Position numbers and translations under genes: made by a program. Shown in pieces: positions 1 to 4,894 of a DNA stretch of 12,246 bases. The notes under the pieces are model-generated. The model saw only the letters and a program-made list of their open reading frames with translations. It was not told the DNA's origin and searched no databases. This DNA is from a virus (taxonomy: Duplodnaviria; Heunggongvirae; Uroviricota; Caudoviricetes): IMG/VR virus record IMGVR_UViG_2695420793_000011, one strand, 5' to 3'. Position 1 is the first letter of the stretch; the number at the start of each line of letters is the position of its first letter.

Positions 1-220
1 AGAGACGCACGCGATAGCGTCCGTCCGGTACGATTTGCAGGTTGTCCAGTTCGGCAAGTTGTTGCTCTCCAAGCCAGACAGGTGGCACGTTATCGCCAGC
101 CAGTCGCCCGTCCTGTTCCTGCCACTGTTTCGCATGTGCCCACGCATCACTACCCGCAAAAATGATGACTTCCGTCATTTTGTCACGCGGCTGGTGTTTT
201 AAATTTGGCGCTTTTTTCAT
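1..220 (-). CDS. hypothetical protein, N-terminal 73 codons only; gene continues beyond window start
   Basis: Minus-strand ATG at 220-218 opens a frame reading MKKAPNLKHQPRDKMTEVIIFAGSDAWAHAKQWQEQDGRLAGDNVPPVWLGEQQLAELDNLQ... with E. coli-like codons and no stop before the window edge. The ATG overlaps the TGA stop of the upstream 99-aa ORF (ATGA), suggesting translational coupling. Not in the ORF track because it is open-ended. Function unknown. Confidence 0.45.
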   Translation of the reverse strand, partial: MKKAPNLKHQPRDKMTEVIIFAGSDAWAHAKQWQEQDGRLAGDNVPPVWLGEQQLAELDNLQIVPDGRYRVRL

Positions 221-516
221 TTCTGCTCTCTCCACGCGGCAATCATGTTTTTTAGTTCCTGTAGTTTTTTATCAACATCCATACATGACACATGGTTATT
301 TCTGGAAAGCGGGATTTCCCGCCTGAATCTGCTAATAAAGATCTCCACGTTCAGCGAACTAAGAAATGAATAGCCATCACGGATAAAATACACACGGTCA
401 AACATCAGTTCTTTTACCGTTACTCTGTTACCGTTCTTATCCAGATAAATAGCGCCGGGGATAATTTGGGGGTGTGCATAACCGCTGGCAGTCAAGCCAG
501 ATAAATACGTTCTCAT
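217..516 (-). CDS. hypothetical protein (99 aa), member of leftward small-gene operon
   Basis: ORF-track frame. It is in the same frame as the upstream 106-aa ORF, separated only by a TAA stop and two codons, and its stop overlaps the next start (ATGA). No family recognised. Confidence 0.5.
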   Translation of the reverse strand: MRTYLSGLTASGYAHPQIIPGAIYLDKNGNRVTVKELMFDRVYFIRDGYSFLSSLNVEIFISRFRREIPLSRNNHVSCMDVDKKLQELKNMIAAWREQK

Positions 517-522
517 GATTAT

Positions 523-843
523 TTATCCCCGATTTGAATCAGTATTCGCTTTCTTTATAGCATTTAATGCATCTGTGGCATTTTCAATGGTGCACCGTAA
601 CGAAATATCAAAATGTCCAAGCATTGCCAGTAACAAACCGATATTACCCATATCAATGCGCATGGCCTTTTCGTCATAGTCCTCATTTTCTGACGCATGC
701 CACATCAGGCTACCAATTGACGCAACAGCCATTGATATATTGTCAGTAGCCCCATCCGCAGCGGAATAAATCTTTTTAGCAATATCATGCTCACAGTTAA
801 AATGCGGATTAATCAGGTACTGGTAATTTGACATATCAGGCAT
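523..843 (-). CDS. hypothetical protein (106 aa), member of leftward small-gene operon
   Basis: ORF-track frame. Its ATG at 843-841 overlaps the stop of the upstream 67-aa frame (ATGCCTGA). No family recognised. Confidence 0.5.
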   Translation of the reverse strand: MPDMSNYQYLINPHFNCEHDIAKKIYSAADGATDNISMAVASIGSLMWHASENEDYDEKAMRIDMGNIGLLLAMLGHFDISLRCTIENATDALNAIKKANTDSNRG

Positions 844-1039
844 GGCACACCCCCTGACGAATACGGGCGGCGAATACCATCACGCAGCCAGCCGGGGATT
901 GCTGGCGTGCTTCCTGTTCGCTGGTGGCCACGATGTGAATCACGCGCGGTTGTGCGGTGCTCAGGGCGATAAAACGCCAGATGTATTTATTCAGGTTGTA
1001 CGAGTCCCGCCCTTGCGGGTGTATGGTATGATTTCTCAT
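836..1039 (-). CDS. hypothetical small protein (67 aa, MRNHTIHPQGRDSYNLNKYIWRF...), probable first gene of leftward operon
   Basis: This is the 3' portion of the 362-aa minus-strand track ORF. An internal ATG at 1039-1037 is preceded by GAGG about 8 nt upstream. The longer upstream extension runs through the AT-rich promoter region and antisense to better plus-strand genes. An alternative start at about 1132 is possible. Confidence 0.35.
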   Translation of the reverse strand: MRNHTIHPQGRDSYNLNKYIWRFIALSTAQPRVIHIVATSEQEARQQSPAGCVMVFAARIRQGVCHA

Positions 1040-1235
1040 AGCTGCCTCGATAATCTTGCTATCGTTGGTGGTTAGAAGCCCCGTTACTGCTCCTACAGTG
1101 CGGGGTTTCGTCGTTTCTGCACCTTGCATTAACAAGGTGTAAGTAACTTTATTTATAGGTGGCTTACATGTCAATGCTTTTATGTAAGACTTTTTATGTG
1201 TATATTGTCTTACACTTTCATTGAGAGGATTACAG
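1040..1235. promoter_or_regulatory. divergent promoter/operator region between the leftward small-gene operon and the rightward regulator-like genes
   Basis: AT-rich intergenic stretch with repeated TGTAAG(A/T)/CTTACA elements, including an inverted pair GTAAGAC...GTCTTAC around 1180-1215 and TTACATGTCAA at about 1164-1176. A short GC stem (CCCCG...CGGGG) at about 1080-1107 lies in the leftward leader. Confidence 0.45.
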
Positions 1236-1541
1236 ATGGCTACAGGTTCAAAAAACGCAAAATCACAATCACTGACAGCTCGGATCCCGCATGATGTTAT
1301 TGAAGGCATGGAATCCGTAAAACTGGACGGTGAAAGCAACGCCGGATTCATAGTAACCGCCATGCGCGGTGAAATCGCCCGCCGCCAGGCAGAAGGAAGC
1401 GGAGAAAACCTCCTGGTTTCTTCGCTCGATGCCCTAGCGCAGGTGGAAAAAATCGGAGTCAAAGCCGCCGAGGAGATCGGGCAACTCGTCACCGTCGCGC
1501 GTGAAGAACTCCAGCGACGCAAGGTCAAAGAGCAGGAATAG
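1236..1541 (+). CDS. small acidic protein, putative DNA-binding regulator of the island (family not confirmed)
   Basis: ATG at 1236 is preceded by GAGAGG at 1224-1229. Codon usage is E. coli-like and a strong intrinsic terminator follows the transcription unit. The N-terminal segment SLTARIPHDVIEGMESV is reminiscent of ribbon-helix-helix-type regulators, but this is an impression only. The track's longer start at 1221 lacks an SD. Confidence 0.5.
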   Translation: MATGSKNAKSQSLTARIPHDVIEGMESVKLDGESNAGFIVTAMRGEIARRQAEGSGENLLVSSLDALAQVEKIGVKAAEEIGQLVTVAREELQRRKVKEQE

Positions 1542-1598
1542 CCACTATCAGCGCCATAGTTTGAGGAACGCAGGCGCATTGCTTTACAGGACAGCACC

Positions 1599-1778
1599 AT
1601 GAGCGACACAGAATCAACCAAAACACCATCACCAACTCGTAAGAGACGACGCAAAAATATAGCGCATGAACATGAATCAGAAAGATTCGCACCTTGTTCG
1701 TTTGCTCTTGAGAAATTCCTTAAAGAGCACAGGAAAAAGCTCTCGTTGCAAACCTTGGAACGAACCAAATCTGACTGA
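1599..1778 (+). CDS. possible small basic protein (59 aa, MSDTESTKTPSPTRKRRRKNIAHEHESERF...)
   Basis: Found by manual translation; below the ORF-track size cutoff. It lies between the 1236-1541 gene and the plus-strand terminator. Weak SD and rare codons (AGA, CGA, AGG, ATA) make it uncertain. Confidence 0.25.
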   Translation: MSDTESTKTPSPTRKRRRKNIAHEHESERFAPCSFALEKFLKEHRKKLSLQTLERTKSD

Positions 1779-1845
1779 TCACATTGCCCACCAGCCGCAA
1801 ATGTGGCATTGTTGGCGATGCGTTCAAGTTTAGTGTGTATCCATT

Positions 1846-1877
1846 GGCGACCGCCCCCGGTCGCCTTTGTTTTATAT
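1846..1877 (+). terminator. intrinsic terminator for the rightward island transcription unit
   Basis: Perfect 8-bp GC-rich stem GGCGACCG / CGGTCGCC with CCCC loop (1846-1865), followed by TTTGTTTTATAT. Confidence 0.6.
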
Positions 1878-1892
1878 GTCATATGCTCCCCT

Positions 1893-2117
1893 TTACGCTG
1901 CCTTACCTGAATTAACGCGGTCACGGCTTTGCACCCAGTCCATAACTTCGGAAAGCAACCAGCCTACAGAACGCCCCCCAAGATTACGGCGAGACGGAAA
2001 GCCCCCTTTCTTCTCCAGTTCGTAGCGTGTAGTACGGCTGACGCCTGTTAACTTACGACATTCATCCTCACGAATTACGCGATCTGTTAGTGATTGAAAT
2101 TGTGTATTTTGATTCAT
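1893..2117 (-). CDS. alpA: AlpA-family phage/island transcriptional regulator (excisionase-like HTH)
   Basis: 74-aa translation with segment LTGVSRTTRYELEKKGGFPSRRNLGGRSVGWLLSEVMDWVQSR, matching the AlpA/Xis-type motif (GxSRsTiY...G.FP....lG.R.v.W...ev..W). Position downstream of a P4-type integrase is typical. Confidence 0.7.
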   Translation of the reverse strand: MNQNTQFQSLTDRVIREDECRKLTGVSRTTRYELEKKGGFPSRRNLGGRSVGWLLSEVMDWVQSRDRVNSGKAA

Positions 2118-2220: not shown

Positions 2221-3075
2221 TTAATTTTCATTAGATAAAATTTTTCTTATTTTTTCTAAAGAATCGCTGCGCATTATTTTTTCTAAGAAGGGTTTTACAG
2301 TCTGAACAATAGCAAAGGTGTCCTTTTCACCATCAGGATACAAAGATACGGCAAGCACCCCTAATGAAATTTTTCTATCTGTAGACAACTCCCAAGATAA
2401 TAAGTCAATTAATGGGATTATCTTATAATCAATAATTTTACGTCGTATGCTCTCCCAACTTCCTGCAATTGGTTTGTCTGGCTCAACAATTGAAAGTTCA
2501 CTACGCCATTTTGGTAATAGTTTTGTAAACGCTTCAATCAACTCATCATCTCTGTTATGTAGTAAGTCAACAGAAACAAGCATATTATCTAATGTATCAG
2601 AAAGGAGATTCACTGGTTCACGCATCACAGCCCAAAACATCCCATTATCTTCTGATATTAAACTTCCAACCATCTCATTATCTATGATGATTGGTTTATC
2701 CTTCCAATATCCTCTTTCCGCAGTCAGTTTATTAATCATTGATATATCAAACCTTGTTACAGGTTTAATTCCATCATCATAACTTAGCTCAATTAACTTC
2801 GGTTGCACTTTATGGTCATATTCTTTTTGTTTATCACAAAACCAATCGTCTTCTTTCAGCTCTCCAAATGGATCCCCGTAATTATTATGCAACGGGTATT
2901 CAGCACCAAACATAAATCCATATTCAGGCATCTCAGAATGTTTCATTGTTAAATCATCTTGTCGCCAATATAATTGGCGAAATAGATCTTTATCCGACAA
3001 GTTTTCTAGGCAATCATATTTGCCTAAATCAAATGACTTTGGTAAATCTTTTTTACTATTTACTTTTTTCGTCAT
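2221..3075 (-). CDS. hypothetical cytoplasmic protein (284 aa), AT-rich cargo gene between integrase and alpA; function unknown
   Basis: Long uninterrupted frame in visibly AT-rich DNA. Its ATG at 3075-3073 overlaps the integrase TGA stop at 3074-3072 (ATGA). No transmembrane segment or catalytic motif recognised by eye. Confidence 0.65.
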   Translation of the reverse strand: MTKKVNSKKDLPKSFDLGKYDCLENLSDKDLFRQLYWRQDDLTMKHSEMPEYGFMFGAEYPLHNNYGDPFGELKEDDWFCDKQKEYDHKVQPKLIELSYDDGIKPVTRFDISMINKLTAERGYWKDKPIIIDNEMVGSLISEDNGMFWAVMREPVNLLSDTLDNMLVSVDLLHNRDDELIEAFTKLLPKWRSELSIVEPDKPIAGSWESIRRKIIDYKIIPLIDLLSWELSTDRKISLGVLAVSLYPDGEKDTFAIVQTVKPFLEKIMRSDSLEKIRKILSNEN

Positions 3076-4292
3076 TGTATCCCTCTCAATATCACAATAT
3101 TTTCATTATATCCTGCAATCATATCAAGACGCTCAACCCATAGATTCAGTGCGTCCCGTTTCGCCTGCAAATAGCGTGAATGGTTATAGGTTTTTTGCTG
3201 ACCTGGCATCTGATGCGCTGTGATGTGCTCCACGATATGCGGATCGACACCTAAATCATTCAGCATAGTTGTAAACGTGTGTCGGAAATCATGCAGCGTC
3301 CAGTGTTCCTGCTTAAGCCGCTTATGCGCATTTCGTCCATATTGCGCCACCGTGGTATCTTTTTTCAGTTCGCCGAGTAATAACCCAGTGTGTGCGTTTT
3401 GCTCCACCAGCTTCTGAATGAACGGCAAAATACCATCAGGAATAGGTCGGAATATTGTTACCTTCGTTTTGCTGTGCTCTTTTGGCACTGTCCACAACAT
3501 TTCTTTCAGGTCCCATTCTTTGATCTCTGAAAGTCTGATCTCTGCCGTTCTGCACCCGAACACAATTAACAAGCGCATTAACGCACTGTAATAGGGAGCG
3601 AACACATCACCATCAATAGCGCGTAGAATTTCTTTTAGTTCGCTGTTGCTGTGCACTCTCTCGCGGATTTCTGCTCTCTTACCCACATCAGTAACGATCA
3701 AATCGTCCAGGGCGTTGCTAAACGCGTAGCGCCGCCTGCGGCAAAACTTTAGCGCCTGTTTGCATGTCTGCATGACATGGCCCGCTGCTACTGGTGCTTT
3801 TTTTCGTACGCGGTCAAAACATGCGATCCACTGCCTTGTATCACACTTATCAAGGGGAATTGCCCCAATATGGCAAATGATGTGCTTATCCATACGCTGC
3901 ACCAGCTTTATGTAATCTTTGCGGTTATCCTTCGCGTATTCCTCCAGCCAGTAGTTAATCGCTTCCTTCACCGTAACGGGTTTTAGTGCTTCCTGTACTG
4001 TGGCGCACAACTCATAACGGGGGTTTTTACCCTCAGCCAGCCATGCCCGGCACAGTGTGCGTTTTTCCCTTGCGGCTTTCAGCGACAATTCAGGGTAAGC
4101 CCCCAGCTTTAACCGCTCTGCGGCAACCTCACGGCCTCCCGTTCGGTACCGGAAATACCAGGTTAATTTGCCGCCCTTTGAGTGTTTAATCTCCAGCCCG
4201 CCCCCGTCGGAGTAAAAACGCTCTTTTTCTGCCTGGACAGCCGCCAATTTTTTTAACGTCGAATCGCTCAGTTTGTTTAGTGCTTTTCCCAC
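3072..4292 (-). CDS. int: P4-type tyrosine site-specific integrase
   Basis: 406 aa. The N-terminal arm-binding-type region (DGGGLEIKHSKGGKLTWYFRYRTGGREVAAERLKLGAYPELSLKAAREKR) resembles P4/CP4-57 integrases. The C-terminus has the HxxR box (HDFRHTF) and a candidate catalytic Tyr (KTYNHSRY). GTG start at 4292 with AGAGGA about 9 nt upstream. Confidence 0.85.
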   Translation of the reverse strand: MGKALNKLSDSTLKKLAAVQAEKERFYSDGGGLEIKHSKGGKLTWYFRYRTGGREVAAERLKLGAYPELSLKAAREKRTLCRAWLAEGKNPRYELCATVQEALKPVTVKEAINYWLEEYAKDNRKDYIKLVQRMDKHIICHIGAIPLDKCDTRQWIACFDRVRKKAPVAAGHVMQTCKQALKFCRRRRYAFSNALDDLIVTDVGKRAEIRERVHSNSELKEILRAIDGDVFAPYYSALMRLLIVFGCRTAEIRLSEIKEWDLKEMLWTVPKEHSKTKVTIFRPIPDGILPFIQKLVEQNAHTGLLLGELKKDTTVAQYGRNAHKRLKQEHWTLHDFRHTFTTMLNDLGVDPHIVEHITAHQMPGQQKTYNHSRYLQAKRDALNLWVERLDMIAGYNENIVILRGIQ

Positions 4293-4328
4293 TATCAGAT
4301 CCTCTTTTCAGTCCTCCAGCCTCAAAAA

Positions 4329-4352
4329 ACTGACCACACAACTGACCACACA
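4329..4352. repeat. tandem direct repeat (A)CTGACCACACA x2 immediately upstream of int
   Basis: Two 11-bp units CTGACCACACA at 4330-4340 and 4342-4352, 12-bp period. Followed at 4369-4386 by CGAACAAC x2 with 10-bp period, within an ACAA-rich tract. Confidence 0.5.
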
Positions 4353-4480
4353 TTTTGTTGAAGCTCTACGAACAACGACGAACAACAACAAACAAGAAAA
4401 CAGGATAATTTATTGTTTATCAAATACATACATAAACAACCACAAGCAACCCCGAACCACAAAAAACACTAAATGAGAAA

Positions 4481-4540
4481 ATACGGGTATTTCTCAGCCT
4501 TCACGCAGAAGGGCACCCCGAGTCGTTTGGTTGCGATGAT
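4481..4540 (-). ncRNA. 5' portion of the thiM TPP (thiamine pyrophosphate) riboswitch aptamer, truncated at the island junction
   Basis: The minus strand reads AACCAAACGACTCGGGGTGCCCTTCTGCGTGAAGGCTGAGAAATACCCGTAT, matching from memory the 5' half of the E. coli thiM leader including the conserved CUGAGA element. After ACCCGUAU the expected CACCUGAUCUGGAUAAUGCCAGCG is replaced by unrelated sequence running into int. Confidence 0.65.
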
Positions 4541-4621
4541 AAATCGCAGAGGAGGATGGTAATGTCCAGCGCACGCGTTGTAAACGAGGAAAAACGGCAG
4601 TTTTACAATCGCGTTAATAAA

Positions 4622-4894
4622 TTATTTGATATATGAATCCAGCACCTTCAGAACGACATCCAGATCTTCTTCACGTTTTAGCTCATCCCCCTGGTGAACG
4701 ATGTGTTCCGTCAGATGACCTTTAATCACTTCCCGTATCAGACCGTTTACCGCGCCACGGATAGCAGCAATCTGTTGTAAAACTGCAGCGCATTCGTGCG
4801 GCTCGTCGAGCATTTTCTTGAGCGCCACGACCTGGCCCTGAATCTTACTGGCACGCGCTTTCAGTTTCTGTTTATCACGGATTGTATGAGACAT
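4622..4894 (-). CDS. rcnR: RcnR, Ni/Co-responsive transcriptional repressor (CsoR/RcnR family)
   Basis: 90-aa translation recognised as RcnR ([52 protein letters not shown]...), divergent from rcnA. Confidence 0.9.

Follow-up and report, generated by a model that had tools for sequence, protein, structure and literature searches.

Two neighbouring ORFs that share a frame across a single TAA are very probably independent genes of a satellite-like element in Escherichia coli

The stretch of DNA analysed here, referred to as the window, is the 12,246 nt IMG/VR virus record IMGVR_UViG_2695420793_000011, and its left end carries a run of closely packed minus-strand genes whose coordinates are collected in Table 1. 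The same element is present in the finished genome of E. coli Ecol_224 (locus L001), where it occupies about 11 kb between thiM and rcnR and has the gene order tyrosine integrase, DUF6387, AlpA-type HTH, divergent YlcI/YnfO, Icd-like, ORF106, DUF4222 (ORF99 in the window) and primase; beyond the window, Ecol_224 has a ClpP-protease/major-capsid fusion gene and a DUF1441 gene. By this gene content the element reads as an integrated E. coli phage satellite. It resembles the satellites of Gram-negative hosts (P4-like, PICI and cf-PICI) in having int, alpA and icd-like genes, small ORFs and a primase gene, with the capsid module lying outside the window. Rfam and tRNA scans of the window returned nothing, including no tRNA gene.

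Table 1. Features at the ORF106/ORF99 locus (window coordinates).
Feature	Position	Strand	Remarks
DNA primase gene, 5′ part	1..220	minus	ATG 220-218 overlaps ORF99 TGA as ATGA; runs off the window
ORF99	516-217	minus	ATG 516-514, TGA 219-217; 99 aa
Spacer ATAATC, ORF106 stop to ORF99 start	517..522	minus	6 nt; from the sequence
ORF106 stop codon	523..525	minus	TAA in 78/78 related loci and 58/58 metagenome contigs
GGGGA, Shine-Dalgarno-like purine run for ORF99	526..530	minus	within last two ORF106 codons, 9 nt before ATG
ORF106	843-523	minus	ATG 843-841, TAA 525-523; 106 aa
Icd-like host cell division inhibitor, first operon gene	836..1039	minus	67 aa; annotation and sequence
Candidate sigma-70-like promoter, TTGACA-17 nt-TAAAGT	1146..1174	minus	10/12 consensus match; upstream of icd-like

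Some features of the wider element and of its chromosomal site are recorded here as observations in their own right. In Ecol_224 a ClpP-like prohead protease fused to the major capsid protein is encoded together with DUF1441 at 8353-10266, with no portal or connector genes, and the same protease-capsid fusion is found in four further loci (L083-L086), beside a homologue of ORF106 with 41% identity. At the same rcnR-adjacent site, E. coli O157:H7 F8092B (L087; NZ_CP038355.1, 1849219-1867279) carries a different and larger satellite, which has separate major capsid, prohead protease, portal, head-closure and connector genes as well as HNH, SSB and PerC genes. Its integrase gene is the same length (1,221 nt) as that of the window element (compare window positions 3072-4894), and the two elements have an icd-like gene in common and differ in the small ORFs between icd and the DUF4222 gene. 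The rcnR-adjacent site seems to be a hot spot at which related satellites integrate.

The four genes from icd-like to primase are joined by very tight junctions. The TGA of the icd-like gene overlaps the start of ORF106 by 8 nt (ATGCCTGA), ORF106 and ORF99 are separated by a 6-nt spacer, and ORF99 and the primase gene overlap by 4 nt; the Ecol_224 annotation has the last of these in the same form, with the primase gene at 11254-13071 overlapping the DUF4222 gene at 13068-13367. There is no promoter-like or terminator-like site between ORF106 and ORF99, and the four genes therefore look like one transcription unit. The candidate promoter upstream of icd-like is the sole sigma-70-like site on the minus strand; such sites are no commoner here than in shuffled sequence, and it is to be read as a consensus match only. 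A 362-aa ORF with a GTG start (836-1924, minus strand) was considered and discarded as an artefact, as it is simply an open frame running across the icd-like gene, the promoter region and YlcI/YnfO on the opposite strand; on the minus strand within this interval RefSeq has the 67-aa icd-like gene alone.

At the junction between ORF106 and ORF99 the two ORFs lie in one reading frame. The minus strand reads AAT CGG GGA TAA ATA ATC ATG AGA ACG across it, so that only the TAA plus two codons separate them, and the distance from start to start (843 to 516) is 327 nt, or 109 x 3. A first-pass annotation of this DNA had described two minus-strand ORFs in one frame with a single TAA between them, and its coordinates, lengths and frame are all confirmed, the lengths agreeing also with the ORF listing of the window. 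It left three alternatives unranked: the loss of a single gene of about 207 aa to a nonsense mutation, a readthrough site, or two genuinely separate genes. As set out below, the evidence favours the last of these.

How surprising the shared frame is can be judged from simple expectation, since any two adjacent co-directional genes have a prior chance of one in three of being in frame. One of the three junctions of this operon is in frame, and so are two of the ten close co-directional annotated pairs in the 26.7-kb region around the locus. The arrangement of ORF106 and ORF99 is therefore not beyond chance expectation.

We examined the conservation of the junction among relatives at several levels. 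The 751-nt junction region is 100% identical in the finished genome of Ecol_224, where RefSeq has two genes, and at least 80% of this query is matched in 471 of 5,426 complete E. coli genomes; among the 30 matches listed of these 471, all 14 with at least 96% query coverage are annotated with two genes. In each of 78 related loci (77 from IMG/VR plus Ecol_224) the ORF106 homologue, at 89–100% protein identity, is 106 aa long and ends in TAA, and the differences at the junction are point substitutions only. The ORF106 genes of the related loci comprise 47 distinct alleles within that identity range, together with a more divergent homologue (67%) in locus L082, which keeps the TAA and the 6-nt spacer with a different spacer sequence. 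The spacer variants are GTAATA (L082), GTAATG (L222) and GTAATC (one locus). When metagenome contigs were scanned with a query in which the stop codon had been replaced by NNN, all 58 contigs matching the junction flanks had TAA. No allele with a sense codon at this position was present in the 78 IMG/VR and genome loci or in the 58 metagenome contigs.

The presence of TAA in all of these related loci and contigs excludes a recent nonsense mutation or a sequencing error. An error of sequencing or assembly in the window as the source of the stop codon is accordingly the least probable of the explanations, to the point of being negligible, since the junction recurs unchanged in a finished E. coli genome (100% over 751 nt), in 77 IMG/VR contigs and in 58 metagenome contigs, that is, in 78 and 58 independently assembled loci. 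All loci that share the window-type junction exactly are closely related, with protein identity of 67% or above, and conservation of the TAA alone would be weak evidence as to how many genes there are. On the sequence comparisons, the case for two genes rests rather on the more distant relatives and on the absence of any fusion.

If ORF106 and ORF99 were the remains of one ancestral gene, a fused protein of about 207 aa might be sought in other islands, where the first-pass annotation had proposed to look for a single fused ORF; the relatives carry two genes, none of them fused. An ORF106-DUF4222 fusion of this size was not found in a search of 5.8 billion proteins or in one of 1.84 billion cluster representatives. 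In the former, full-length matches to ORF106 are 106 aa long or have extra residues at the N-terminus only, and matches to ORF99 are proteins of 99–104 aa plus fragments. In an exhaustive HMMER search of the cluster representatives the relatives of ORF106 are stand-alone proteins of 100–106 aa, and every full-length match stops at the C-terminus of the matched protein itself. A profile search widens the ORF106 family to 135 proteins, from Klebsiella, Raoultella, Erwinia, Kluyvera, Phytobacter and E. coli, which are 100–108 aa long with the exception of a few fragments, N-terminal Icd fusions and chimeras; the DUF4222 domain is absent from all 135 by profile search, and DUF4222 matches do not exceed 104 aa. 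Some large proteins matched ORF106 in several stretches (P0058 and others), and these were set aside as TPR-repeat or repetitive proteins that are not relatives.

The N-terminal fusions noted above join an Icd-like sequence to ORF106 (...ARIRQGCAMPDMSNY...) and comprise P0001 (171 aa, 36 members), P0003, P0017-19 and P0057, all of which stem from assemblies of Logan reads. At the sequence level the fusion amounts to the run CAGGGGGTG being one G shorter; the same run serves as the Shine-Dalgarno sequence of ORF106, and in the window it is a run of five Gs at about 850-854, within 843-856 on the minus strand, at the icd-like/ORF106 junction. Across 129 assembled loci from IMG/VR, metagenomes and genomes, this run showed no such indel. 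When complete E. coli genomes were queried with a four-G version, the best 12 of 450 matches (at least 80% coverage) were 98.8% identical, which fits a one-base gap. These fusions are probably homopolymer errors, but they may reflect a rare real frameshift allele.

The two ORFs belong to quite different protein families. ORF106 corresponds to RefSeq WP_001113139.1, a 'hypothetical protein'; its residues 1-106 align with positions 1-106 of the 106-position profile of PHROG 15327 (E = 5.4e-71), no Pfam domain was matched, and its family aligns from N- to C-terminus at 100–108 aa. The AlphaFold2 model (pLDDT 85.6) has helices at residues 19-51 and 58-105, and ORF106 is confidently predicted to be a helical hairpin that ends at its stop codon. 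A Foldseek search with this model against the PDB retrieved generic helical hairpins only (best E = 0.45, T4 UvsY), and no function was assigned; a PDB sequence search gave nothing significant for either ORF106 or ORF99. We also observe that dozens of ORF106 homologues in Klebsiella, Erwinia and Raoultella (P0074-P0165) are called 'ubiquinol-cytochrome C reductase' in NCBI and UniRef. The proteins so named come from satellites or prophages, are about 105 aa long and encoded beside primase genes, lack a Pfam domain and are predicted to form a helical hairpin, and the label looks like a propagated misannotation.

ORF99 corresponds to RefSeq WP_001261503.1, a 'DUF4222 domain-containing protein'. 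Residues 17-67 match positions 2-52 of the 53-position profile of Pfam PF13973 (E = 1.4e-16; 60.2 bits against a cut-off of 27), phrog_285 is matched as well, and the ORF begins where DUF4222 proteins begin, with the conserved N-terminus M-x-x-x-x-SGLTASG. Over its full length it is 32% identical to the RgdR-type 99-aa protein of O157:H7 F8092B. An AlphaFold2 model built from a shallow alignment of ten sequences (mean pLDDT 73.3, pTM 0.48) suggests, with modest confidence, a small beta-barrel with a helix at the C-terminus; in a Foldseek search against the PDB the core resembles KOW/SH3 folds, with a best E of 0.018 that is not significant, and no function was assigned. A tblastn search of 50,697 phage records with ORF99 gave no match, and a scan of genome contigs gave only three weak matches in Clostridia (33% identity), which are uninformative.

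Both genes also appear to be maintained. Among loci aligned gap-free to the reference, pN/pS is 0.371 for ORF106 (47 distinct alleles) and 0.367 for ORF99 (46 distinct alleles), and tblastn recovers full-length matches (residues 1-99) to ORF99, with no frameshifts or internal stops, in 72 of 72 loci that have a complete window-type gene. ORF106 and ORF99 are thus under similar purifying selection, with pN/pS close to 0.37 in both; the pairwise values are not independent, and we take them as supportive rather than decisive.

Taken against these observations, the explanation that a nonsense mutation disabled one ancestral gene of about 207 aa, leaving a module in decay, is exceedingly improbable. 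The shared frame, with a single stop plus two codons between the ORFs, is its sole support. It is contradicted by the lack of a fused homologue in either protein collection, by the TAA in 136 of 136 loci, by the membership of the two halves in different families that have different partners elsewhere, by the start of ORF99 exactly at the N-terminus of DUF4222, and by a downstream ORF that is under the same constraint as the upstream one and is free of lesions. The module is intact, and the first-pass suggestion that it might be decaying does not hold.

The two genes can be followed separately in other elements. In L083-L086 the 41%-identical ORF106 homologue (P0059) has TGA as its stop and shares a GTGA overlap, out of frame, with an unrelated 122-aa gene, which is followed by one for an AAA_25 protein, and in Klebsiella (L088) the ORF106 homologue is separated by a 72-aa gene from a DUF4222 gene that also encodes 72 aa. 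No DUF4222 gene follows the ORF106 homologue in Kluyvera, in another E. coli element or in Erwinia (L089-L092), all of which have unrelated genes downstream with overlaps of 4–11 nt; overall, what comes after an ORF106-like gene in the more distant elements is an unrelated gene, which it usually overlaps by 4 nt. Conversely, the RgdR-type DUF4222 gene of O157:H7 F8092B follows an unrelated 80-aa gene, out of frame and with a 5-nt spacer. This 80-aa gene was considered as a possible ORF106 homologue and rejected, as it aligns poorly with the ORF106 family (19% identity).

Two IMG/VR loci (L076, 734-1030, and L077, 3328-3624) have the window-type ORF106 and junction followed by an RgdR-type DUF4222 allele that is only 36% identical to ORF99, and they are therefore mosaics. 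The breakpoint, one of recombination within the 5′ end of the DUF4222 gene, lies after about 12 identical codons (MRTYLSGLTASG) and reveals modular exchange of DUF4222 alleles between satellites.

A broader survey covered 41 unique DUF4222 junctions from viral contigs. The DUF4222 ORFs range from 63 to 104 aa (full-length members 99 aa, short forms about 63–72 aa), the nearest in-frame stop lies 1–11 codons upstream of the start (35 in one case), and the spacer from the upstream gene is 1–19 nt long. The upstream gene is in frames 0, 1 and 2 relative to the DUF4222 gene in 15, 10 and 16 cases, respectively. Near-identical junctions differ by single-A indels (GAGGTAAAAATATG, GAGGTAAAAAATATG and GAGGTAAAAAAATATG), and across loci L239-L279 of IMG/VR the A run in GAGGTAAAAATATG has 5, 6 or 7 As, giving spacers of 9, 10 or 11 nt and thus all three frames. 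The A-rich spacer before DUF4222 genes tolerates slippage. Because such indels shift the frame relation of the DUF4222 gene to its upstream neighbour, this relation is free to drift, which argues against a selected readthrough product.

These data bear directly on whether programmed or leaky readthrough of the TAA might yield a functional 208-aa ORF106-DUF4222 fusion beside the separate proteins. Programmed readthrough is familiar from the A1 protein of phage Q-beta, which is made via UGA, and the likeness of the present junction to that system is one of geometry only, there being two ORFs in one frame with one stop between them. Unlike the Q-beta case the stop here is UAA, the codon recognised by both release factors and the one at which leakage is lowest in E. 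coli; neither context nor structure is conserved, and relatives do not keep the frame. To our knowledge, readthrough in bacteria and phages has been described at UGA or UAG. The predicted fold of the 111-nt junction RNA is not more stable than that of shuffled sequence (z = -0.66), and the local hairpin is neither better than shuffled nor conserved. In the +1 frame there is another TAA 4 nt downstream. The frames in the wider family are random (15/10/16) and altered by single-base indels, and most homologues of ORF106 overlap the gene that follows in a different frame. What speaks for readthrough is that every window-type locus retains the TAA and the 6-nt distance, L082 (67%) included, where the spacer length persists despite a differing sequence; as the window-type loci are without any indels, the kept spacer length carries little weight. 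We regard a readthrough site as very unlikely, if the least improbable of the explanations other than two genes. Were a small fraction of ribosomes to read through the UAA after all, and were the resulting 208-aa fusion to have its own role in the satellite life cycle, selection rather than accident would explain why this satellite lineage strictly keeps a 6-nt spacer.

We therefore consider it highly probable (about 95%) that ORF106 and ORF99 are two independent, functional genes in a tight early/replication operon and that they share a frame by chance. Both ORFs are intact, conserved and of different protein families, and they occur separately elsewhere. The junction is an ordinary gene boundary, already annotated as two genes, and the separate-gene alternative of the first-pass annotation is borne out by the same stop in all 136 orthologous loci together with the two genes in the RefSeq annotation.

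With two genes at this boundary, ORF99 would be translated from its own ATG (516-514), and how ribosomes reach this start can be considered from the anatomy of the junction. The GGGGA run has a predicted duplex with the 3′ end of 16S rRNA of -5.7 kcal/mol, compared with -5.9 for the icd-like site and -6.4 for that of the primase gene; of background 22-nt windows on the minus strand, 17% score -6 or below and 25% score -5 or below, so that about 17–25% of them match it, and the Shine-Dalgarno sequence of ORF99 is a weak one that does not decide the matter. In five loci the sequence is CTGAGA, which is weaker still (-2.7), and the G-rich run before the ATG of ORF106 is a strong Shine-Dalgarno sequence (-13.2 kcal/mol). 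Divergent DUF4222 genes with unrelated genes upstream are preceded by the same arrangement, a purine run, then TAA, an A-rich spacer and the ATG.

We also considered a hairpin that would mask this site, in which the Shine-Dalgarno sequence, TAA and spacer pair with codons 4-6 of ORF99 (nine A-U-rich pairs, -6.0 kcal/mol). Apparent compensatory changes were seen at first in F8092B and Klebsiella; the hairpin was not conserved on later comparison, and it was rejected because across 19 divergent junctions z ranges from -0.95 to +0.94 against shuffled sequence and the stem is often absent.

In translationally coupled gene pairs the stop and start typically overlap (ATGA) or are separated by a short spacer, and reinitiation follows termination, as at junctions of the trp operon. 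The ORF106/ORF99 pair resembles these in its 6-nt spacer, in the Shine-Dalgarno-like run inside the upstream gene and in the lack of an intervening promoter-like or terminator-like site, and the neighbouring junctions of the operon are 8-nt and 4-nt overlaps; it differs from the classic pairs in that the Shine-Dalgarno sequence is weak and a masking hairpin is neither significant nor conserved. Translational coupling is thus likely in the icd-like, ORF106, DUF4222 and primase operon, as inferred from anatomy only. Ribosomes terminating at the TAA of ORF106 would reinitiate at the ATG of ORF99; alternatively, the weak GGGGA in the final codons of ORF106 may draw ribosomes de novo, possibly alongside reinitiation.

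As to what ORF99 does, the closest guide is RgdR (ECs1581), a 99-aa DUF4222 regulator encoded on the P4-like island OI-51 / CP-933C of E. coli O157:H7 (Flockhart et al. 2012, PMC3378721; PMC10877973). When expressed alone in trans, RgdR activates LEE1 and represses motility, and its RGD motif at residues 20-22 matters for T3SS activation, with residue 20 being important (PMC3378721, PMC10877973). ORF99 is similar in being a stand-alone DUF4222 protein of 99 aa whose gene directly precedes that of the primase in an integrated element of P4-like or PICI-like type. The differences are that identity is only about 32–36%, that ORF99 has P20-G21-A22 where RgdR has RGD (the F8092B homologue has CGD), and that RgdR-type genes have a different upstream gene and a 5-nt spacer. 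With PGA in place of RGD, ORF99 is a member of the DUF4222 family and not an orthologue of RgdR in the functional sense. By analogy it probably acts like RgdR, as a small regulator carried on a mobile element.

The early/replication module of this element is thus intact, and the junction is not to be annotated as a pseudogene or as a recoding site. The placement of ORF99 in the RgdR (DUF4222) family provides a starting point for the role of this gene in strains without LEE.
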